A stretch of 64,000 nt of DNA from Dehalococcoidia bacterium (GTDB lineage: Bacteria; Chloroflexota; Dehalococcoidia; SM23-28-2; RBG-16-64-32). Positions within the stretch are counted from its first letter, which is position 1; every line of letters begins with the position of its first letter. A program made the translations under genes and the position numbers. The DNA is taken from NCBI GenBank assembly GCA_963665775.2, contig CAXXTF010000001.1:704001-768000 (forward strand), given 5' to 3'. Below, piece by piece: positions 4,269 to 63,824 of this stretch. The notes under the pieces were generated by a model, which searched no databases, was not told the DNA's origin, and saw only the letters and a list, made by a program, of their open reading frames with translations.

Positions 4269-4856
4269 TTGACCGACGCATCGAACCGCTGGCTGGCGGC
4301 CCGGACCACCCCGGGCGACAGCTACGACGAGACGTACGAGCGCCGTGCCGCTGCGGGCGAGGAGGTCCATGGCGAAGCCAATTTCGTGCAACGGTTCTCG
4401 CCATCGTCGGTACTCGATGCCGGTTGCGGGACGGGTCGCGTTGGGCGTGAGCTGGCACGGCGTGGCGTCGACGTGGCAGGCGTGGATATCGACCCGGAGA
4501 TGCTTCGTACGGCGAGCCAAAAGGCTCCCGATGTCGATTGGCACCTTGCCGACCTCGTGAGCGTTGACCTTTCCCGGTCATTCGACGTGATCGTGATGGC
4601 CGGGAACGTAATGATCTTCTTGACGCTGGGCACCGAGGGCGCTGTCATTGCGAACATGGCCCGCCATCTGCAGCCGAGTGGAGTGCTCATAGCGGGATTC
4701 CAGATCATGCGGAGTCGGCTGGCCATCGAGCGGTACGACGAGCTCGCCACTAGCGCTGGGCTTATGGGCGCCGAGCGATGGAGCACCTGGGATCGCGACG
4801 TTTGGGACACGGGTAGCGACTACGCTGTGTCCGTACACAGGAAGGCACAGGCCTGA
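4269..4856 (+). CDS. Class I SAM-dependent methyltransferase
   Basis: HGEANFV; VLDAGCGTGR; AGNVMIFL. TTG start uncertain. Confidence 0.85.
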   Translation: MTDASNRWLAARTTPGDSYDETYERRAAAGEEVHGEANFVQRFSPSSVLDAGCGTGRVGRELARRGVDVAGVDIDPEMLRTASQKAPDVDWHLADLVSVDLSRSFDVIVMAGNVMIFLTLGTEGAVIANMARHLQPSGVLIAGFQIMRSRLAIERYDELATSAGLMGAERWSTWDRDVWDTGSDYAVSVHRKAQA

Positions 4857-5163
4857 CCCCGGAATCCCTCCAGGACGATCCGCACCTTCTCTTCGGGGGT
4901 GCCCAGCAGAGAATTGTGCGGCAAGCTGCTGAAATTGGCGAGATCTACTCAGGAGAGCGTCCAGCAGCGCCCCAAGCACAGCGGCAATCTCGGTTGGATA
5001 TAAAGAGCGCGGAACTCTGGCACCTCATGCGAAACCGCGAGCTTGGCTACCGTTTGTCCCGTGCTATACTTTACAAGTGGAACATAATACAGTCGAATGT
5101 TTCAATATTACAGCGGGGGCCGTGTCCCCGTGATTGGCGCCAAGTCGTAAAGATGCGAGGGCC

Positions 5164-6630
5164 ATGAAGACCCTTCTGATTTCGGTCTATGAGTTGGGCC
5201 ATCAACCCCTTGGCCTCGCCTCGCCGGCCGCCCACATCCTGGACCGAGACTTGCCGGTGGAATGCCTGGATCTCTCCGTGCAGCCCTTTGATGAAGGTGC
5301 GGTGCGAGCGGCGGACTTCGTCGGGATCTCCATTCCGATGCACACAGCGATCCGCCTGGGTGTGAAGCTAGCGGAGCGGGTGAGGAATGTCAATGAGCGC
5401 TGCCACATCTGCTTCTACGGTCTGTACGCCTCGCTGAATGGCGATTATCTTCTGAGGACTCATGCTGACAGTGTAGTCGGGGCGGAGTTCGAGGAGCCGC
5501 TCGTAAACCTCCTGCTGTATCTATCCGGCAGGCCGGTGGATAGCCTGTTTGGGGTCCAGACCAGATCCAGCAGTTCGCCGCCGTTCCTCGGCCGTCAGGA
5601 CTTCCTCCCCCCTTCCCGCCACCTGCTGCCTCCGCTCGAGCACTATGCTCGGCTGGATACGGGAACGGAACTGAAATTGGTCGGTGGCGTAGAGACCAGC
5701 CGCGGTTGTGCCCATCAATGCCTTCACTGCCCTATCACTCCCGTGTACGGGGGGAGGTTGCGCACTGTGAACGAGGAGGTCGTCCTCACAGACATAAGGA
5801 ATCTGGTAGCGATGGGGGCGCAGCATATTACCTTCAGAGATCCTGACTTCCTGAACGGTGTAAAGCACTCCATGCGAATCGCGCGACGGATGCACGAGGA
5901 GTTTTCCCACCTTACGTTTGATGCCACCATCAAGATCGAGCACATCCTGGAGCATCGGACCCTGATCCCCAAGCTGAGGGAGTACGGCTGTATCTTCATC
6001 CCCTCGGCGGTGGAGTCCCTAAATGACGAGGTCCTGCGCTACTACGAGAAGGGACACACCAAGGCGGATGTGGTTGAGGCCCTGGAGATCACTCGCGCTG
6101 CTGGCCTCGCCCTTCGCCCCTCTCTAGTCTCCTTCAGCCCCTGGAACACACTTGAGGACTACCTGGAAGTGCTGGATTTCGTGGAGGAGCACGGTCTGAT
6201 TTACAACGTTGATCCAGTTCAGTATGCCATCCGGCTTCTGGTGCCGCCTGGTTCTAGCCTGCTAAATATCCCGCAAATGATCCCCCATATCCGCGAACTG
6301 GACGAACAGAACTTCAGCTACGTTTGGGAGCACACCGAGCCTCGCGTCGATCTCCTCCAGCGCCAGGTCAGCAGGATGGTCGAGGAGGCTGCCCACAGCC
6401 ACGAAGAGGAACAGGTGACGTTCCAGAGGATCAGGGGCTTAGCCTTATCGGTCCTGCATGGCGGCACCTTCACTTCGCCTGAGGTGAGCGGCACTCCCCA
6501 GGGACGGCGGCCGCCGCGGTTGACCGAATCGTGGTTCTGCTGAGCAGAACCCACCGAGGACCAGTTGGTCCCCTACACAGACAGTACAAGGCACTCGACA
6601 GGTGTGATGTCCAACACCGCCGCGGTATGA
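5164..6630 (+). CDS. CUAEP-tail B12-binding radical SAM selenoprotein (UGA at 6541-6543 read as Sec)
   Basis: ATG at 5164 (MKTLLISVYELGHQPLGLA); CAHQCLHC = CxxxCxxC. The 3' end reads ESWFC-TGA-AEPTEDQL and is open to TGA at 6628-6630. A hairpin follows the first UGA. Confidence 0.88.
6558..6571 (+). promoter_or_regulatory. Candidate bacterial SECIS hairpin
   Basis: GGACC-AGTT-GGTCC; the loop starts 19 nt after the UGA and contains GU. Confidence 0.7.
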
Positions 6631-6667
6631 TACCATAGGCGAGAGATATGTCAGAAGGAGCGAGCCA

Positions 6668-7324
6668 ATGACAGAACGATTGGAAATCGGACACGACCAA
6701 GAGCCGCTGCTCACCGTCACCCAGAACGCGCAACAGAGGATCAGCTCCCTGATGGAGGCGGAAGGCCGCCAGGGACAAGCCATCCGCGTGGTGGTACGCA
6801 ATAGCTCCCCCGGCCGTTTCCAGTACGGCTTAGAGTTCGTGGAGCAGGGAAAGGAAGATCAGGACGATACCGTCGTCGACTTCGGCCCCTTCAGGCTCGT
6901 GGTTGACTCCACCAGTGCGCCCAAACTGAAGGGCGCGACCATCGACTTCGTCGACGACCCGCTAGGCGGCAGCACCGGCCTTCAGGTCGATAACCCGAAC
7001 AGCGCCTGGACAGATCCCATGGCAGCGAAGATTCAAGAGCTGATCGATACCCAGATCAATCCGGGGGTGGCCAGCCACGGCGGACACGTAGACCTCATCG
7101 ACGTCAAGGAGAACGTGGTGTACATCCTCCTCGGCGGCGGCTGTCAGGGATGCGGTATGGTAGACGTTACGCTGAAGCAGGGGATCGAGGTGATGATCAA
7201 GGAAGCGGTCCCCGAGATCCAGGGGGTCGTCGACACCACCGACCATGCCGGTGGTAGCAACCCCTACTACCAGCCGGCCAAGGGCGGCGAAAGCCCTGGC
7301 GAAAGCCCCCTGGCCTCGTCGTAG
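6668..7324 (+). CDS. nfuA: NfuA-type Fe-S carrier (degenerate A-type domain plus NifU C domain)
   Basis: Cys-less HesB-like N domain; INPGVASHGG...GGGCQGC...TLKQGIE...DTTDH...NPYY; AAGGAG RBS. Confidence 0.88.
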   Translation: MTERLEIGHDQEPLLTVTQNAQQRISSLMEAEGRQGQAIRVVVRNSSPGRFQYGLEFVEQGKEDQDDTVVDFGPFRLVVDSTSAPKLKGATIDFVDDPLGGSTGLQVDNPNSAWTDPMAAKIQELIDTQINPGVASHGGHVDLIDVKENVVYILLGGGCQGCGMVDVTLKQGIEVMIKEAVPEIQGVVDTTDHAGGSNPYYQPAKGGESPGESPLASS

Positions 7325-7418
7325 GCGTCAGCGTTCATATAGGCGGTGCTCTAGGCGCCGTTGCATTGAGGGTCTTCTGTCTTTTAAGGCGGGCTAACCG
7401 AAAGGGAGTTGAGTCAGT

Positions 7419-7814
7419 ATGGACACCCAGGAGTTGATCGCTAGGTTTCCCGAAATCCCAGAGGTCCTGCACGAGAAGCCCGTTTTGACGCGGTACGCCG
7501 AGGTGTTCGGCGATCTCTTGCGTACTGCCTGGAAGCCAACTGCCTGCTCGGCAAGCCAACAAACGGCCGAAAACCTGGTTTACATGAAGCTCATTGCGCC
7601 AATGGGAATCCTGGCTTACGGGCTCTCCACTCCCGAGAAGACCGTGGTCCAGCTCGAGGCTTTGCTGGAAGCGTACCGGCCGGATCCGGAAAAGTTCCTG
7701 GCCGAGCTGATCCCTCCGGACGTGGCCCAGACGCCGGGCGGATGCCAGGCGGATGAGAGCCCGGGCGCCGGGGTGGCAACCGCGTCGGACTCCGGGCTTT
7801 CCGGAAGAAACTGA
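7419..7814 (+). CDS. Hypothetical protein with two Cys (KPTAC, PGGC)
   Basis: AAGGGAG RBS; protein-like helical composition; co-oriented with rSAM-nfuA. Confidence 0.7.
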   Translation: MDTQELIARFPEIPEVLHEKPVLTRYAEVFGDLLRTAWKPTACSASQQTAENLVYMKLIAPMGILAYGLSTPEKTVVQLEALLEAYRPDPEKFLAELIPPDVAQTPGGCQADESPGAGVATASDSGLSGRN

Positions 7815-7886
7815 CGCTGAGCCGTTCCCTGGCGGCCATCAACATCAAGAAGTTGCACAGCCCCAACTATCTGTTCCGGTCGTCTG

Positions 7887-9122
7887 CTATCTCGGCTCGA
7901 TGACAAACTCCAACCGGCCGTAAGCCTCGCGCAGCGCCGCCTCGACCCGCTCCGGGGTTTCGCCGCGGGCAAAGATGAACCCCAGGTAACGCGTGCCCTC
8001 CGGCAGGGGGACCACCTCCTGCCCCAGCGGGACGCTTATGAGGACCTGCTCGATCGCCGGCACCCCCTTGGCCCGCTGCTGGCCCTGAACCTCACGCAGA
8101 ACCCCAGCTTGAGGTATCGGGATCATCATTACCCCTGCCGAGCCTCTCTCCCGCTCCAGCGAGTCGACCTCCATCCCTAGGGCGTGTCGCAGGATCAGCT
8201 CCTCCAGCGAGATGCCGGCGCCGAAGCGGAGCGTGCGGGAGCAGAGGCCGCCGATGGACCGAGCGGCGATCTCGATGATCCAGGGCCCTTGTTTATTGAC
8301 TCGCAACTCAGCATGCACGGGCCCATCCCGTAGGCCCAGCGCCCTCGCCGTCGCGTCAGCGCAGGCCGCGATGTCTCCTTGGAGGGTATCTGTCAATCGC
8401 GAAGGCGTGACATAAATCGTCTCCTCGAAGTAGGGCCCATCTAGGGGATCGGGCTTGTCGAAGATCGCCAGCACTCTGAGCTTGCCACTCGTGAGCAGCC
8501 CCTCCAGCGCCACCTCCTGCCCCGGTATGAACGTCTCGACAAGGATCTGGCGCGCGGCCTCGGCGCCCGTCGCAGCCACGTCCGGCTGACGCAGGATGGC
8601 AGCGAGCTTGTGGAAGGCTAGCACAAACTGTTCCGCATCGTCGGCGCGAATGACGCCACGACTGGCCGACAGGAACAGTGGCTTGACCACGCAGGGGAAG
8701 CTCACCGCAGGAGCGAGCGCTACCGGGTCATCGTCAATTGACAGGAGCTGAAAGCTAGGCGAGGGGAGGTGTGCCTTGGCCAGGAGCTGCCGCAGGTCGT
8801 GCTTATTCCGCGTCGCCTGGGCCGACTCCACGGAGTTGTGGGGTAGCGACAGCGCCGCGGCCGCCATCGCCGCCAGAACCGTGGTGTCATCGTCGACGCC
8901 CAGGACGGCGGTCAGCGGGTATCGCTTCGCGAATGCGAGGATCGCCGCCGTCGCTTCCTTTGGCGTGAGGAAATTGAGGGTCAGCGCGCTTCCCGGCACA
9001 AACTCCGACAGCGCCTGCGGCTGGTCGGATCCGACCACCACTTCCACACCTAACCGCCGCGCTGCCTCCAGAAACGAATGGGCACGGTAGGTTCTGGTGG
9101 ACATAAGTAGGAGAACGCGCAT
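7887..9122 (-). CDS. ATP-grasp domain ligase (L-amino-acid ligase-like)
   Basis: FPCVVKP...SASRGV; VETFIPGQEVALEG; IFDKPDPLDGPYFEET; GPVHAELR; IEIAARSIGGLC. Confidence 0.9.
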   Translation of the reverse strand: MRVLLLMSTRTYRAHSFLEAARRLGVEVVVGSDQPQALSEFVPGSALTLNFLTPKEATAAILAFAKRYPLTAVLGVDDDTTVLAAMAAAALSLPHNSVESAQATRNKHDLRQLLAKAHLPSPSFQLLSIDDDPVALAPAVSFPCVVKPLFLSASRGVIRADDAEQFVLAFHKLAAILRQPDVAATGAEAARQILVETFIPGQEVALEGLLTSGKLRVLAIFDKPDPLDGPYFEETIYVTPSRLTDTLQGDIAACADATARALGLRDGPVHAELRVNKQGPWIIEIAARSIGGLCSRTLRFGAGISLEELILRHALGMEVDSLERERGSAGVMMIPIPQAGVLREVQGQQRAKGVPAIEQVLISVPLGQEVVPLPEGTRYLGFIFARGETPERVEAALREAYGRLEFVIEPR

Positions 9123-9468
9123 GACCTATCGGGACCTCCCAGCGTAGAACCGCTGACGGGGAACAATTCTGCGGCCTTGCCGTCTCGGCAACATCAAGTG
9201 AGCTGGCCCCTGGTGTCCAGATGCCAGTCCTGAGTGTACATGATGAGGGCTCCCAAGGGCCGTGCTCTGTGAGGCGCTAGAGGCGCAAGGGGTCGAGTTC
9301 ATCCGTCGTGCCGCCGGGGAGCCGGGGTTTGGCTTTATCTCCACGTTCCTCAACCCAGTGTGCGGCACTTCCTACGGAGGGGGCAAAATGGCATCCTTAT
9401 CTGAGGAGGTCCAGCAGCCAGCCTGTGGGGGAGACTCGGCCACGGTCCGGCTCCTTATATTGCCGCCT

Positions 9469-58248: not shown

Positions 58249-59310
58249 ATGCTCTCCAAGGTCAACAGCTGTGCCGTCGTCGGCCTCGACGGCGAGATCG
58301 TCGAGGTGGAGGTGGATATCGCCCAGGGGCTGCCCGCCTTCGCCATCGTTGGTCTGCCGGATACCGCCGTCCAGGAGGCGAAGGAGAGGGTGCGCTCCGC
58401 CATCCGGAACTCCGGCCACACCTTCCCGCAGCAGCGGATCACCGTTAACCTGGCTCCGGCCGACCTGCGGAAAGAGGGGCCCGGCTACGACCTGCCCATC
58501 GCTGTCGGGATACTGGTAGCTTCCGGTCAGGCGCCGCCACCTGAGGAGCAGGCGCTTTTCCTGGGGGAGCTCTCGTTGGACGGTCGGTTGCGGCACACTC
58601 ACGGCATTCTGCCCATGGTCGGCTTGGCCCGCGATCACGGGTTTCAGGCCGCCTATGTGCCGGCGGCTGATATCGAAGAGGCGTGCCTGATCGATGGCCT
58701 AGAGATCTTCCCGGTGGAATCTCTCAATCGCCTGGTCGAGCACCTGCGGGCTGAGGAGCCTATCGCCGCTTTCGTTAGGGATCGGCCACGGGATGCAGAT
58801 GCGGAGGCTCCCCCGGACGGCGTTGACTTCCGGCATATCAGAGGCCAGGAGCACGTGAAGCGGGCGCTGGAGGTGGCGGCCGCCGGCGGGCACAACGTGC
58901 TTATGGTGGGGCCTCCGGGGGCTGGGAAGACGCTGTTGGCCCGGGCCACGCCCACTATCCTGCCCCGGTTGACCGGCGGCGAGGCCCTGGATGTCACGAA
59001 GATATACAGCGTGGCCGGAATGCTGCCTGGGGATACACCTCTCATGAACCACAGGCCCTTCCGGGCGCCACACCACACCATCTCGCATGCCGGCCTGGTG
59101 GGTGGAGGGCGGCAGCCGCGGCCCGGTGAGATCACCCTCAGCCACCGCGGCGTCCTCTTTCTGGACGAGCTGCCGGAGTTCGCACACTCTGTGCTGGAGT
59201 CGATCCGCCAGCCCCTGGAAGATCGGGTTGTCACCGTGAGCCGTGCCCAGGGTAGCGTGACCTTCCCGGCGAACTTTATGCTCCTGGCCGCCATGAACTC
59301 CTGCCCCTGC
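58249..59310 (+). pseudogene. comM: comM/YifB Mg-chelatase-like ATPase, 5' part, interrupted by an integrative element
   Basis: [10 protein letters not shown]; NLAPADLRK; GPPGAGKT; RPFRAPHH; LFLDELPEF. Similarity stops after AAMNSCPC. Confidence 0.88.
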
Positions 59311-60871
59311 AAGTCGAGACTACAGAGGGAAACCTATACTCAACGACCGCGCTCGCGTGCTTGCGGCCGTCGCGCAGTTCCGTCTGCACCGTGATGCGTC
59401 TAACGAGCAGACGCACGATTTCTTGACGCTCCTCATCGCGGAGCCCTCCATCCAGGCGGCGGGTTATTTCGGCCAGGAGGTCGGGCGTCACCTCCAGCGC
59501 CTCCTCCGGATCTTCCTCGGGGCCCAAAGCGACAAGCCGCCGCTCTATCTCCGTCCGCTTGGAGGCGATCTCGCCCAAACAGGTTTCCAGTTCTTCTGGG
59601 GTGAGATGCCCCCGAATGCGGAGGTCAAGGGCCCTCTTACGCTGCTGGTCGAGGTCGCGAATTGCAGCGGTAAGCGTGATGGACTCCGCCTCAGCAACGG
59701 CTGCCTGGCCGCCGCCGCAGGATTCGATCGCCAGCTCGTCGAGCAGCTCGCCTGGGCTTCGGAGAAAGCGTTCGATGTCGGACCAGATGAGGGGCTCGAT
59801 GGTATCGCTTTTGACCGACTTCCCGCTGCAAGGTCCCTCTATGGGGCCGCGCTCGACTAGCTGGCCGTTGCAGCGATACCAGGCGGCGCCGTTGCTCGTG
59901 GTTCCACAGTAGTTCAGACCACAGATCCCGCAGCGGATTACGGAGCGTAGTAGGTAGATGCGCTTGCTGTTCTTGGGGATGATCCGGTTGCGATCTAGGG
60001 TTTCCTGCGCGGCGTACCAGATCTCATCGGACACCAGGGCCTCGATAGTGGCAGAGATGACTTCCCGTCCGCCTACCCGGCTGCTACGGCGACCAAATTG
60101 CAGCACGCCGCGATACACAGGATTGACCACCAGGTTGCGAATGCGACCTGGTCGCCATATTCCTTGCGTTCGTTGGCCACGGATGCCCCGGTCGTCTCGC
60201 TCGTACACTGTGGGGACACAGAGGATGTTCAATTCATTCGCAATCCAGCGGCAGCTCTTCCCTTCAACGCCGAGCCAGTGATAGATACGCTTGACCAAGT
60301 CCGCAGTACTCCAGTCCCCCCAGATGAGGGCCTCGTCTGGGATGAGCCGGGCGGTCTGACGTCGCCCATTTACCTGGTATCCTAACGGCACGATTCCGCC
60401 GGTGTAGCGGCCTTCCCGTGCGGCGCGCTCCATGCCCCGAGCTGAGTCCGCGAGGAACTGGCGTCGGACATATCCCGCCATGATGGACTGGAATCCGAAC
60501 ATTGTCCGGTCGCCCAGCGATTCGGCGACCCCGATCAGCTCAATGCCGAGCAGGTCGACGAACAGGTTGTAGGTGGTCAGGAGGTCAATCTCCTCACGGC
60601 CGAGTCGGCTCGCCCGCAGCACGATGATCTTGAGGAACTTCGCGGCCTTTGCGTCGGCGACCAACTGGCTGCCGGCCGGGCGTAGTGCCATTGGTATAGT
60701 CCCGGAGACGCCGTCATCCTCGTAGTAGCGGTAGAGGCGGTAATGGGGGTTCTGGGCGAGATAGCGATCGATGGCCTCCCGCTGCGTCTTGATGGTCTCC
60801 CGGTCGCGCTGGTCATCGCTAGAAACCCGGAGATACGCGGCCGCGAGGGTAGCTTCTTGGTCTGTCATCAC
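59276..60871 (-). CDS. Large serine recombinase (integrase)
   Basis: YLRVSS nucleophile motif; DDGVSG; SRLGR; PLGY; Zn ribbon CGICG...YRC; coiled coil; LVRRITV. Confidence 0.93.
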
Positions 60872-61029
60872 TAGGCCTCCCGCCCGGAGGTTAGCGGCTG
60901 GCGAGGGAGCCCAAGGACGATCCGCAGGGCCGCCAGCATCGCGTTCCGGTCAGGTGTGTATGTACGCGTTACTGAGAGCCGGTTATCAAGTGGGGATCTA
61001 GCAGATCGGGAGTACAATGCATCAACCAT
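60871..61029 (-). CDS. 52-aa ORF translationally coupled to the recombinase (absent from ORF track)
   Basis: MVDALYSRSARSPLDNRLSVTRTYTPDRNAMLAALRIVLGLPRQPLTSGREA. Its TAG overlaps the GTG start (TAGTGATG). Confidence 0.5.
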   Translation of the reverse strand: MVDALYSRSARSPLDNRLSVTRTYTPDRNAMLAALRIVLGLPRQPLTSGREA

Positions 61030-61034
61030 GTCTA

Positions 61035-61268
61035 TCAGCTACCAGTGATAGGTATCTCCAAGTCTTGGAGCGCAATGCGGATGGCCTCGATGTTGCCCTT
61101 GGCCTTAGCACGGAGGGAGGGGTCGGACCGTGCGTCGCTTGCGAACGACCAGATTTCCTGAAGCCCGCTCTCCAGTGCTAGCCGCACGGGCTCTGGTGCA
61201 CTGGTAATAGCGATCGGGAACCCGCCTGTGGTGGCGTCACCACGAAAGACTACAACGTAGCTACTCAT
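61035..61268 (-). CDS. Small hypothetical protein
   Basis: GGAGGAG RBS; 77 aa. Confidence 0.55.
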   Translation of the reverse strand: MSSYVVVFRGDATTGGFPIAITSAPEPVRLALESGLQEIWSFASDARSDPSLRAKAKGNIEAIRIALQDLEIPITGS

Positions 61269-61380
61269 CGCCTTACTCCTCCAGATAGTCGGAAGCCCCG
61301 ATTAGCATCCGGGGCTTCCACTGTATTCCCGCTGGCGCGGGGTGAAAACTTACGGCTCCGCAGCGCTAATGCGCCCGATC

Positions 61381-62313
61381 TTAAGAGGCTGCTTGGATCA
61401 GACGAAGCACGGCTGACGGAGATCGACGGAGACGATAGAGAGCTTGATGCTGACAATTGGTGAGCGGGCGATTTTCGATTCGGGCGAGAATCGCATTCCG
61501 TTGACTGTGCGGAAGATCGCCGATGGCCTGGCGAATAGCGCGTTTGGCCTCGGCCAGCTCGGCCTGGTATTCCAGATCATCCTCGTCGGGCAGTGGTTCA
61601 TCCTGATCGTTGGAAAGGGCCAGCTCCTTGCCATCTCCCGCTCTTCGCCATCCAGGTCCGGCGAGGTCGTCCATCAAGATGTTGGCCAAGGGGGCTCGGC
61701 ACGTAGTAATGAAGTCGGGTATCAACGTATCTTCCGGGATTGCTGCGAATACAACGGGGAGCGCCTGTATCGTGTCCAGTTGCAGTTCACGATTCATTGA
61801 TGTTCCGTGTTGACCGGCCCGTCGGAGCAATTCCGGCTCGACCAGTCGCCAGCGGCGCGGGTGTATCGGTCTCTTGAACCACCGGACTGCTAGTCGCTCA
61901 GCGGCTTCTTCACGCTCGATCTCTGGGTAACGCGAAGATGTGACCCGCGACCAGTCTCCCAGGAACGTGCCGGGCCGGAACGCATCGTCAAAGGCCTTCT
62001 GCATGGCCTCCGACAAGGTGTCGAGGAGGGGCAAGAGGGTATGGCGGAACTTAGCCGCAATCTCATTCATACGGCGGGCCATTTCCGCCACAGGCCGAAA
62101 GTCGATGACCACGTGCCTTAGACCCAGGTGAATTGGAGGGAGGCTAAGAGCTGGGTTAATAGAGCCCGCGAGCTTCACCATGTTAGGACTCCTCAGTAGT
62201 AGCGCTGATGAGTTGATAGCCGAAAGAGCATCGGTCAGCGATCTGCCACATGGTATGGTCGCCCCCGGTCTAATCCGTATCGTCACTTCATTTGTGTCTC
62301 TCAGCATGCTCAC
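61381..62313 (-). CDS. Hypothetical protein with a sigma-70 region 4-like C-terminus
   Basis: ELAEAKRAIRQAIGDLPHSQRNAIL...QALYRLRR. Confidence 0.5.
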   Translation of the reverse strand: MSMLRDTNEVTIRIRPGATIPCGRSLTDALSAINSSALLLRSPNMVKLAGSINPALSLPPIHLGLRHVVIDFRPVAEMARRMNEIAAKFRHTLLPLLDTLSEAMQKAFDDAFRPGTFLGDWSRVTSSRYPEIEREEAAERLAVRWFKRPIHPRRWRLVEPELLRRAGQHGTSMNRELQLDTIQALPVVFAAIPEDTLIPDFITTCRAPLANILMDDLAGPGWRRAGDGKELALSNDQDEPLPDEDDLEYQAELAEAKRAIRQAIGDLPHSQRNAILARIENRPLTNCQHQALYRLRRSPSAVLRLIQAAS

Positions 62314-62481
62314 TCGTTCCGCTCAGACGCGGCTCCAGACTATTTGGGGCAGCTGCTAAGACCCTTTACGCCCCATCATATTATACCCGCCCGGGCGATG
62401 TGGTTTCTTACGCGTTCTCGCCGGCCGGAGGCGGCAATTCTGAAATCCGAGACTGCTGATTCAATGAGCGGGAATGAGGGG

Positions 62482-63414
62482 TCACACTTGGAGTGCTCGT
62501 GCCACCATCTGCCAGCCTCGATCCTCCTGTCCCTCCAGCCGTCGCAAGTAGACCGTCGTCACCGCCAGGGAGCTGTGATCCAGGAATTGGCTTACGTCCT
62601 CCACAGATTCACCGGCGTCTCGTCGCAGCTTGGCTGCCGAATGACGGAGGATGTGAACGCCTGCCGGCGGCAGTTCGGCGTGGCGCTTGTAGCGTCGAAG
62701 GTTTCCGTAGAAGCTCCCGCTCGTGATGCCACGGCCTTCAACCGAGTGGCGGGATGGCCAAAGAGATTCGTCGGGGCTCATCGTGTCCAGGCTCTTGCCC
62801 CAGGCCGCAAGGGAGCGCTCGATAGCCTCGAATGCTGGTCGTGGAAGTTCTCTCTTCCCCTGCTTGCCGCCCTTGCCCCGATACGTGTAGAACAGGCCGC
62901 CGGTCTGCAAGATGTCTCCTGCCTTTAGGTTGAGTACCTTGGAGCGTCGTCGCCCGGTCAGCGTTAGGGTCAAGATGATGGCACGGTCGCGGAGGCCGGT
63001 TGGGGAGTCCGGAATTACCTCCAGCAAGCGGCGTATCTCCTCGGCGCTGAGTCCTCTGGGTGGACTAGGTGATGTGCGTGGCCGCTCGATCTCGTCACAC
63101 GGATTCGAGGATACGATCTTCATCCGGATGAGGAATCGGTAGAACGAGCTCAGGCAGGCAAGCCGGGCTCCCACCGTGATCGACGAGGGCTTCTTGCCGG
63201 AGAGCCTCACGCCGTGCGCGAAGACGAACACTTCCTGGCTGGTGATCTCGTTGGGCGGCTTCCCAATCGAGCCGAAGAAGTGCTGCAACATGCGGGAGTA
63301 GCTTTCGACGGTCCGGCGGGAGCCGCTGCGTCGCTCCTTCTCGGCGAGAAAGGCGTAAAAGGCCTGCTGCCAGCCTGGCGTCCGCTCGTCAAAGAGTACA
63401 ATATCGTCAGTCAT
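62482..63414 (-). CDS. Tyrosine recombinase/integrase
   Basis: SRRTVESY; LSSFYRFL; RDRAI...TGRR; GKGGK; HILRH; LDH; TTVY; AGGAGG RBS. Confidence 0.9.
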   Translation of the reverse strand: MTDDIVLFDERTPGWQQAFYAFLAEKERRSGSRRTVESYSRMLQHFFGSIGKPPNEITSQEVFVFAHGVRLSGKKPSSITVGARLACLSSFYRFLIRMKIVSSNPCDEIERPRTSPSPPRGLSAEEIRRLLEVIPDSPTGLRDRAIILTLTLTGRRRSKVLNLKAGDILQTGGLFYTYRGKGGKQGKRELPRPAFEAIERSLAAWGKSLDTMSPDESLWPSRHSVEGRGITSGSFYGNLRRYKRHAELPPAGVHILRHSAAKLRRDAGESVEDVSQFLDHSSLAVTTVYLRRLEGQEDRGWQMVARALQV

Positions 63415-63611
63415 GCTCACCTCCTATTCTCAAGTCAGTTAGCATGTTCCCTCTACCGCACACGAAGTCAAGTTAGTGTGCGCTTCTATTGCCACTAGTT
63501 GGTCGCTATAATCGCCCCAGGAAACACGCCATATCCAGAAATGCGGCCGGGCTCAGGCATCAACTGGATGCACGCCGTAGCGGGGGCCGCGCCCAGAAGG
63601 AGGCGGTAATC

Positions 63612-63824
63612 ATGGCTAAGGGGGCCACTCTGAAGGTCCCGGCTATTCATTGTCGCGGCTGCTCGAACACCGTAACGAGGACCCTCGAAGCGCTGCCCAC
63701 CGTCCAGGTCACCCAGGCCGATCCAGAGTCGAAGCTGGTGCGTGTGCAGTTCGAAGAGTCAGCCGTTACCCTGGACCGGATCCGGGAGCGCCTGGACGAG
63801 ATCGGCTTCTGCCCAGAGGACTAG
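63612..63824 (+). CDS. Heavy-metal-associated (CopZ-like) chaperone
   Basis: LKVPAIHCRGC metal motif; GGAGG RBS. Confidence 0.85.
   Translation: MAKGATLKVPAIHCRGCSNTVTRTLEALPTVQVTQADPESKLVRVQFEESAVTLDRIRERLDEIGFCPED

Follow-up and report, generated by a model that had tools for sequence, protein, structure and literature searches.

A conserved module of an ArsL-related, Cys-Sec-tailed radical SAM protein, an L-amino-acid-ligase-type ATP-grasp protein and Nfu-type carriers

Background

ArsL, encoded in the arsinothricin arsQML cluster, is a radical S-adenosylmethionine (SAM) enzyme that, according to the available text of one preprint, turns SAM into a 3-amino-3-carboxypropyl (ACP) radical and forms a C-As bond, with a C-terminal RCCLKC tail that is needed for arsenite binding (10.1101/2024.02.01.577332). 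The accessible part of a later preprint adds that all three tail cysteines bind arsenic, that six cysteines are absolutely conserved, and that, to date, no other canonical radical SAM enzyme has been shown to produce an ACP radical (10.64898/2026.04.29.721666). ArsL also accepts methylated arsenicals, and an 'MCCA' variant, whose tail is cut to a vicinal cysteine pair, is given in the available portion of a third source as the most efficient with a methylarsenic substrate (PMC13598754); as far as that portion goes, a two-chalcogen tail is thus chemically competent for ACP transfer. Here we describe a relative of ArsL encoded in a 64,000-nucleotide stretch of DNA from a Dehalococcoidia bacterium (assembly GCA_963665775.2, contig CAXXTF010000001.1, positions 704,001 to 768,000; hereafter the window). 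It is a radical SAM protein (rSAM) with a vicinal cysteine-selenocysteine (Cys-Sec) pair near its C terminus, and its gene lies beside genes for an NfuA-like iron-sulfur (Fe-S) carrier, a 131-aa hypothetical protein and an ATP-grasp ligase (Table 1). An original prediction, made from the letters of the window, had proposed that these four genes belong to one selenium-linked pathway.

The family to which rSAM is assigned below, NF040546, is treated as uncharacterized in the available text of Haft and Gwadz, where its CU motif appears in a list of motifs suggestive of contact with a heavy-metal atom (10.1101/2022.07.06.499078). A literature search for 'CUAEP' and 'CCAEP' produced no relevant paper besides that preprint, and the original prediction that the family has no assigned reaction agrees with the preprint's available text, which mentions it only as uncharacterized.

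Known proteins also resemble other parts of the locus. In mercuric reductase MerA and thioredoxin reductase, C-terminal Cys-Cys or Cys-Sec arms carry a soft metal ion or reducing equivalents to the active site; the rSAM tail resembles these arms in design only, as the folds are unrelated. ArsI has a vicinal cysteine pair. Among L-amino-acid ligases (LAL), BL00235 prefers Met/Leu as substrate, and BacD (YwfE) belongs to bacilysin synthesis. NfuA rebuilds the sacrificed clusters of LipA and MiaB.

Results

Selenocysteine decoding in the rSAM tail

The tail codon was read in the window and in 80 related rSAM loci, which are the best 80 of 584 confirmed relatives from a scan of one genome per species and represent at least eight phyla. 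Four loci had unreadable tails (three stop where the match does or no more than about 75 nt from it, and one, L033, is without the motif), leaving 77 readable tails. The codon was TGA in 58 of these, the window included, and TGC or TGT in 19. A hairpin stands at a fixed distance past the TGA, with its 5' arm at nt 16-22 and the loop AGUU(N). At least five consecutive pairs could be formed at this site in 54 of the 58 Sec forms as against 2 of the 19 Cys forms, and the 22 distinct arm pairs found among the loci imply compensatory change, that is, covariation of a selenocysteine insertion sequence (SECIS). Since the window hairpin taken by itself was no more stable than shuffled sequences (z 0.84), it is the comparison across loci that supports the SECIS. 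An Rfam scan of positions 4800-9400 found no SECIS and no credible RNA family, the only match being a chance one to a long non-coding RNA (E 0.059).

With TGA read as Sec, the frame continues as AEPTEDQL and stays open to the terminal stop codon, and this extension past the tail motif is longer than in the aligned homologs. The genome of the window has selD, selB, selA and tRNA-Sec, all over their cut-offs. Sec460 is therefore established at the level that sequence analysis allows: the alignment of UGA with Cys codons, the covarying SECIS and the presence of the decoding genes bear out the original prediction of a genuine selenoprotein. The wider proposal of a pathway linked to selenium did not hold, as 19 of 77 tails have Cys and no selenium gene recurs in the neighborhood.

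For selD, the genome of the window (G000) has two matches over the cut-off (C2:1214863-1215795 and C2:1465008-1465940; L082 and L083). One has an in-frame TGA and probably encodes a SelD that itself contains Sec, and in the other a TAG interrupts the region of the match.

Family and fold of the rSAM protein

Against NF040546 (cut-off 500) the rSAM protein scored 636.5 bits, in a match that spans model positions 2-466 of 468, and the search of the genome gave 630 bits; the C-terminal C-U/C-A-E-P motif of that family is present as WFC-U-AEP at residues 457-463. Judged by score and motif it is a member of NF040546, a family whose related proteins fill over 7,800 90%-identity protein clusters at E 1e-30. 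The second-best model was ArsL (NF040542) with 330.7 bits over residues 3-409 and model positions 1-414 of 423. All models after ArsL, every methylase model included, scored at most 60 bits (HpnR, 60 bits), and AprD4 scored 31 bits. By these scores ArsL is the nearest characterized relative by a wide margin.

The two proteins have the same domain build, near-full-length homology, a CxxxCxxC motif and a vicinal chalcogen pair near the C terminus; in ArsL, going by the available text of the reports, the tail cysteines bind the arsenic that receives the ACP group. The window protein differs in that its score lies under the ArsL cut-off of 450, in that the match ends before the ArsL tail, and in that its own tail lies about 50 residues further out, reads WFC-U/C-AEP, holds two chalcogens versus three in RCCLKC and often uses Sec. 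Since the score and tail tests both fail, we do not place rSAM in the ArsL family. The partners differ as well, being a ligase, Nfu/YggX and DUF169 here versus ArsM and the ArsQ permease there, and an ars context was not found in the 80 loci. On sequence grounds, then, the system belongs to the ArsL type of radical SAM systems but departs from ArsL in its tail and its partners. By analogy, the natural C-U/C tail resembles the one that, in the available portion of the ArsL variant work, functions in ACP transfer onto a two-coordinate soft centre.

The protein consists of a radical SAM core (PF04055, 50.6 bits; cut-off 29.5), preceded by an N-terminal Rossmann-like (B12-binding-like) domain and followed by the conserved C-terminal tail; the B12-binding model PF02310 scored 25.7 bits, under its threshold of 32.1. 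An AlphaFold2 model built with 25 homologs had a mean predicted local distance difference test score (pLDDT) of 89.9, with residues 441-470 at 67-82 and the last 16 residues disordered. Its best fold match was AprD4 (TMq 0.68), followed by TsrM, OxsB, MgmA, TokK, CysS and MiaB/RimO, in a comparison set without an ArsL structure, and a sequence search of the PDB gave weak matches only.

The three cysteines of the CxxxCxxC motif are invariant in 80 of 80 rSAM homologs. Cys276, found in 77 of 80, is the only other near-universal cysteine apart from the tail, and could be a third ligand or a redox partner. An auxiliary cluster built from four conserved cysteines was considered and found no support, with Cys83 present in 65 of 80 homologs, a position-8 cysteine in 70 of 80, and Val at position 8 in the window. 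That residue (window 5185-5187) lies in the N-terminal LLISCYELGHQP motif.

Conservation of the module across phyla

An ortholog of the ligase was found by tblastn within 10 kb of rSAM in 33 of the 80 loci (45-66% identity), and within 3 kb in 31. Its position relative to rSAM varies, being upstream, downstream or convergent. When the count is restricted to the 41 loci that extend 5 kb or more on each side, the ligase is no further than 3 kb away in 18. Represented among the loci are Gemmatimonadota, Acidobacteriota, Chloroflexota, Nitrospirota, Planctomycetota, Rokubacteria and KSB1. An Nfu domain was detected by tblastn in 29 of 80 loci, mostly as a short C-terminal domain encoded directly downstream, and a gene for an Fe or Fe-S helper (Nfu/NfuA, YggX or IscA) in 51 of 80 and in 32 of the 41 full-flank loci, which makes these helpers the commonest rSAM neighbors. 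The other genes flanking the module in the window recur in 0-2 of 80 loci each (tblastn).

We then compared whole genomes, using 401 genomes of the window's phylum. Matches to rSAM were present in 106 of them (103 over the cut-off) and an ortholog of the ligase in 131 (E 1e-40 or better, 44-64% identity). Both genes occur in 103 genomes, rSAM only in 3 (one of them a partial match), ligase only in 28 and neither in 267. Three unpublished genomes are in this tally, G038 with both genes and G173 and G344 with the ligase only; without them the four counts are 102, 3, 26 and 267 of 398. As genomes of one phylum are related and hence not independent, no P value is given. Five genomes outside the sample, in which the rSAM locus has no ligase within 10 kb, all have the ligase elsewhere (54-63% identity), and in three of the five an Nfu gene stands beside the displaced ligase.

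The reverse does not hold. In 12 ligase-only genomes the ligase adjoins NfuA/Nfu in 11 and YggX in one, and no gene besides these was common beside it. A search for rSAM at E 1e-8 gave no match in four of five ligase-only genomes (94-100% complete), and in the fifth a contig broke off within an rSAM fragment, which makes the count of 28 an upper bound. The dependence is one-sided: rSAM almost never occurs without the ligase, and the ligase with Nfu occurs without rSAM. Either rSAM tailors the product of the ligase, or it supplies one of several possible ligase substrates. In one rSAM-less genome (G028; L106:4201-7212) the genes for a pyridoxal phosphate (PLP) enzyme of Cys/Met metabolism, a short Nfu and the ligase follow one another head to tail on the same strand, and a homocysteine-like substrate may there come from the PLP enzyme instead.

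The gene arrangement is thus more than chance, and the module as a whole is undescribed in the literature that we searched. The original prediction had treated rSAM, NfuA and the ligase as a conserved uncharacterized unit, a view to which an absence of conserved co-occurrence in unrelated genomes would have been fatal; what we found is strong co-occurrence, with the ligase in 33 and Nfu in 29 of 80 loci and the pairing in 103 of 106 genomes.

Further recurrent neighbors were counted by de novo clustering of all open reading frames (ORFs) in the 80 loci, four of them being recounted by tblastn. They are YggX (20 loci by clustering, 21 by tblastn), DUF169 (13 and 15), a formyltransferase paralog (15 loci in one lineage, and 16), IscA (6 and 10), an ArsB/CitMHS permease (7 loci, mostly one lineage) and an ATG22-type major facilitator superfamily protein (6 loci). 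Pfam DUF169 was present in 71 of 106 rSAM-positive, 43 of 295 rSAM-negative and 4 of 28 ligase-only genomes, the count in negatives being inflated by other DUF169 subfamilies; a literature search for DUF169 returned incidental mentions only. DUF169 and YggX are looser members of the module in other genomes. The genome of the window has a DUF169 gene (31% identical to a module-linked one) and yggX, both located elsewhere.

The formyltransferase paralog, which is methionyl-tRNA-formyltransferase-like, is divergent and upstream of yggX-rSAM in Ktedonobacteria-type loci (L034-L078). A partial copy also adjoins YggX and the ligase in an rSAM-less genome (G271, L103).

The ATP-grasp ligase

The ligase matched the Pfam domains ATPgrasp_N, ATP-grasp_4 and LAL_C2 with 119.3, 56.8 and 42.9 bits, all over the cut-offs, and its nearest solved structure was the L-amino-acid ligase BL00235 (3VOT, E 1e-39), with BacD at E 1e-14. 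The motifs DKPDPxxGPxFEET and RxIGGxC are invariant in 34 aligned orthologs. The stretches DKPDPLDGPYFEET and RSIGGLC, which had been proposed as marks of this ligase subfamily, are present in the window protein and are invariant or nearly so in the same orthologs. Sequence comparison therefore makes it a free-amino-acid (LAL-type) ligase that forms its own orthologous group; it shares all three domains with BL00235 and BacD and differs from them in its own motifs and in its tie to NfuA/YggX and rSAM. A look-up in a protein atlas gave automatic ATP-grasp/LAL cluster names only. The possibility that the ligase is itself an Fe-S protein was ruled out, since just two cysteines are conserved and it thus has no Fe-S motif.

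In Candidatus Manganitrophus (G401 C1:1088227-1089451, L115) the ligase ortholog is matched in two overlapping pieces, the second with four internal TGA codons, and may be a frameshifted or decayed copy.

The NfuA-like carrier

The carrier has a cysteine-free A-type N-terminal domain and an Nfu domain with CQGC, the same architecture as NfuA of Escherichia coli (TIGR03341), in which the Nfu domain likewise has a CxxC. It scored 153.2 bits against TIGR03341, under the equivalog cut-off of 269; we call it NfuA-like because the score falls under this cut-off, yet the two-domain architecture and the CxxC are present. It further differs from the E. coli protein in that its gene is conserved beside a ligase, in that many related loci encode a short Nfu domain only, and in a weakly supported docking on the ligase. 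It is the only NifU-domain gene found in the genome of the window (2.35 Mb, 91% complete; one NifU match).

Complex prediction for the ligase and NfuA gave a median score of 0.56 (runs 0.61, 0.56 and 0.52), and the best control reached 0.01. Contact agreement in these runs was at least 61% and partner pLDDT at least 70. In calibration, 58 of 80 solved complexes passed the mark, as did 2 of 110 mismatched pairs; a score at or below 0.60 accounted for only 7 of the 80 solved complexes and for both mismatches, counts that are only roughly valid here as custom alignments were used. The prediction lends weak support to a docking of the ligase and NfuA.

Genes outside the conserved module

The original prediction had also counted the 131-aa hypothetical as a member, and here the evidence went the other way. 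Its product had no match among protein-family models or in Pfam, was absent from 80 of 80 rSAM loci (tblastn), and had only 15 homologs, with 53-100% identity, among 5.8 billion proteins. The gene does not occur in the module of G348, which is alone among the other sampled genomes of the window's class in having the module; rSAM had no match in the 42 genomes of families f2-f21, which take in all genomes labelled as of the same class except G348 (f22). The window rSAM is 40% identical to the G348 copy versus up to 60% to Longimicrobiales copies. From this we infer that the module may have been laterally acquired, and that a lineage-specific small gene may have lodged in it.

Two methyltransferase genes lie upstream of rSAM. 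The first was found in 0 and the second in 2 of the 80 loci by tblastn, both matches being distant. As candidate ArsM-like partners both were rejected, being not conserved and far below the ArsM model cut-offs. By these comparisons the upstream methyltransferases and the 131-aa gene lie outside the conserved module. The second methyltransferase (window 4269-4856) is weakly TehB/CpaM-like; a homolog with 53% identity (L104:8895-9662) lies about 1 kb from NfuA and the ligase in an rSAM-less genome (G083), and the gene is absent from nearly all other loci.

Gene layout and expression

All four ORFs of the original prediction were present on an ORF reading of the window (Table 1).

Table 1. Positions of the genes and sequence features of the rSAM locus in the window
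Feature	Position	Strand	Details
CUAEP-tail radical SAM (rSAM) selenoprotein gene	5164..6630	+	ATG 5164, stop TGA 6628-6630, 488 aa, Sec at 460
rSAM CxxxCxxC motif (C182, C186, C189; CAHQCLHC)	5707..5730	+	binds [4Fe-4S] cluster; direct sequence reading
rSAM tail motif Cys459-Sec460-Ala-Glu-Pro	6538..6552	+	TGC-TGA 6538-6543, UGA codon 6541-6543
SECIS hairpin	6556..6573	+	5' arm GAGGACC, loop AGUU, 3' arm GGUCCCC; five consecutive loop-proximal pairs
NfuA-like Fe-S carrier gene (nfuA)	6668..7324	+	Pfam Fe-S_biosyn + NifU
131-aa hypothetical gene	7419..7814	+	two Cys; family match none
L-amino-acid-ligase-type ATP-grasp gene	7887..9122	-	411 aa; Pfam ATP-grasp_4, LAL_C2, ATPgrasp_N

A gap of 37 nt separates the rSAM stop from the nfuA start, and the convergent stops of the 131-aa ORF and the ligase lie 72 nt apart (7815-7886), close to the roughly 70 nt first estimated. 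By-eye reading found a Shine-Dalgarno-like purine-rich stretch 5' of the start codon in four of four genes, and a scan for promoters and terminators found nothing above chance relevant to operon structure.

Metatranscriptome contigs from two libraries of one study are identical to the window in rSAM, nfuA, the 131-aa gene and the ligase. They cover parts of rSAM (5514-5812 and 6152-6478) and of the ligase (7964-8157 and 8816-8996), and one bridging contig per library (6628-7543 and 6639-7896) runs from nfuA through the 131-aa gene. Since such libraries may carry DNA and contigs cannot prove a single transcript, these sequences are consistent with expression of the four genes and no more; some parts of the locus have no contig, which carries no information on expression there. 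The long contigs of both runs start at 6628 and 6639, after the rSAM stop and before nfuA; in runs of one study that carry no strand information, this hints weakly that nfuA has a transcript start of its own or that the RNA is processed there.

Elsewhere in the window, a large serine recombinase gene (59279-60871) shares its end with a ChlI/ComM-type Mg-chelatase-like gene on the opposite strand (58249-59391), and next come a tyrosine integrase (62485-63420) and a small heavy-metal-associated (HMA) domain gene (63489-63821). The stretch 58249-63821 may be an integrated element inserted in a comM-like gene.

Discussion

The module probably makes an amino-acid-derived compound. We tentatively favor, as the first of several possible readings, a mechanism like that of ArsL, in which the aminocarboxypropyl group of SAM would pass to an atom bound by the Cys-Sec tail, with the ligase handling the resulting amino acid and NfuA serving the cluster. 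The UGA at codon 460 is decoded as Sec with the aid of the SECIS hairpin that starts 15 nt downstream, a step that the tail comparison bears out, and a vicinal Cys-Sec pair thereby comes to lie on the conserved C-terminal tail. By homology to ArsL, cleavage of the C-gamma-S bond of SAM would then give methylthioadenosine and the ACP radical. A soft atom on Cys459/Sec460, possibly held also by the nearly invariant Cys276, would capture this radical; candidates are a trivalent (organo)arsenical, an antimonial or a chalcogen, and the product would be a 2-amino-4-(X)-butanoate amino acid. Co-occurrence and family suggest that the ligase would form a peptide bond with this amino acid, or alternatively, because the ligase can exist without rSAM, that it would supply a scaffold which rSAM tailors. 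NfuA would load or repair the [4Fe-4S] cluster and may dock on the ligase.

Several observations weigh against this proposal. The link to ArsL is one of homology, with a score under the ArsL cut-off (331 versus 450) and with tails that differ, and a Cys-Sec tail fits a redox role equally well. No recurrent arsenic, antimony or selenium gene lies beside the module in the 80 loci, and the upstream methyltransferases are poorly conserved (0 and 2 of 80). Up to 28 of 131 genomes have the ligase but no rSAM, so the ligase must use some substrate not derived from rSAM. The frequent Fe-S helpers could reflect mere general cluster supply, and NfuA, as the sole NifU-domain gene of its genome, may be a plain housekeeping gene. 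Finally, the gene set is single-copy, is present in 46 of 218 sampled genera of the phylum and has no conserved exporter or resistance gene, which is unlike a typical antibiotic cluster.

The alternative that comes second, and that we consider somewhat unlikely, gives the tail a redox role. Here rSAM would use ordinary 5'-deoxyadenosyl radical chemistry, for instance to reduce or dehydrate the product of the ligase, and the swinging Cys-Sec arm would re-reduce Cys276 in the active site, much as the tails of thioredoxin reductase and ribonucleotide reductase re-reduce active-site cysteines. The best fold match, the diol dehydratase AprD4, fits this chemistry; Cys276, as the sole further near-universal cysteine, could pair with the tail; Sec beside Cys at a flexible C terminus is the design of thioredoxin reductase; and a ligase without rSAM is what one would expect if rSAM were an optional tailoring step. 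However, the similarity of rSAM to ArsL is far above that to AprD4 (331 versus 31 bits), the vicinal cysteine pair at the same end of ArsL serves in substrate binding according to the available text of the ArsL reports, and no thioredoxin or reductase gene recurs in the 80 loci.

In third place is a module centered on Fe-S metabolism, whose core would be the ligase with NfuA/YggX. The Fe-S carrier would be the target or the working partner of the ligase, or else the ligase would produce a small thiol or peptide that serves clusters as a ligand; rSAM would come in as an add-on or frequent client and might sacrifice a cluster in the manner of lipoyl synthase. This would account for the partners kept by the ligase where rSAM is missing (NfuA/Nfu in 11 and YggX in one of 12 genomes) or separated from it (Nfu in three of five), for the rank of Fe helpers as commonest rSAM neighbors (32 of 41 full-flank loci) and, weakly, for the docking score of 0.56 versus 0.01 in the best control. 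The ligase itself, with the three-domain build of free-amino-acid ligases, two conserved cysteines and no Fe-S motif, speaks against such a role, as does the chance that NfuA is a housekeeping protein, and a complex verdict of this weakness is by its calibration more often wrong than right unless the complex was likely beforehand. We regard this explanation as unlikely.

The original prediction had noted that B12-dependent radical SAM enzymes are often methylases and had the Cys-Sec tail handle a metal, methyl or sulfur/selenium group. The corresponding reading is a B12-dependent methylase whose Cys-Sec tail passes on a methyl group, with all four genes, the 131-aa hypothetical included, in one selenium-linked pathway. 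The N-terminal domain does have the cobalamin-binding rSAM fold, with TsrM, OxsB, TokK, CysS and MgmA among its matches, and weak matches to methylase models exist (HpnR, 60 bits). We nevertheless find this reading improbable. PF02310 stays under its threshold (25.7 versus 32.1 bits), ArsL at 331 bits far exceeds the methylase models at 60 bits or less, and what ArsL moves is aminocarboxypropyl rather than methyl. The entry title of AprD4, the best fold match and one that we take to be cobalamin-free, names no cobalamin. The 131-aa gene is not conserved, and Cys tails are common (19 of 77). In the available text of the two reports on in vitro reconstitution of ArsL with ArsM, cobalamin is not mentioned (10.1101/2024.02.01.577332; 10.64898/2026.04.29.721666).

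That unrelated genes are merely adjacent in this one genome is very improbable: the ligase is convergent, hence outside the operon of the other three, and rSAM and the ligase of the window have different best-matching lineages, but the two co-occur in 103 of 106 genomes, are adjacent in 33 of 80 loci of many phyla in changing gene order, and in five of five dispersed cases the ligase is present elsewhere.

Returning to ACP transfer onto a tail-held atom, its fullest form would have the module yield a new SAM-derived amino acid in which carbon is bonded to a metalloid or a chalcogen, such that homocysteine or arsinothricin would have an organo-arsenic, -antimony or -selenium counterpart that is built on the Cys-Sec tail and joined by the ligase into a dipeptide, with Nfu docked on the ligase. 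We hold this form, taken whole, to be quite unlikely.

Conclusions

New here are the phylum-wide two-by-two table, the one-sided dependence of rSAM on the ligase, the persistence of ligase and Nfu without rSAM, the SECIS control of Sec versus Cys forms, the weak docking signal, and the link to the two-cysteine ArsL tail. The one-sided dependence narrows the logic of the pathway. NF040546 is the much larger sister family of ArsL. Knowledge of its product would show whether ACP-radical chemistry is widespread, would explain the selection of Sec at the vicinal Cys-Sec site, and would assign a role to the conserved amino-acid ligase as well as to the tie of that ligase to Fe-S carriers. If the organometalloid reading is true, such amino-acid chemistry would be common in soil and sediment bacteria of many phyla, and not a rarity of a few Burkholderia.

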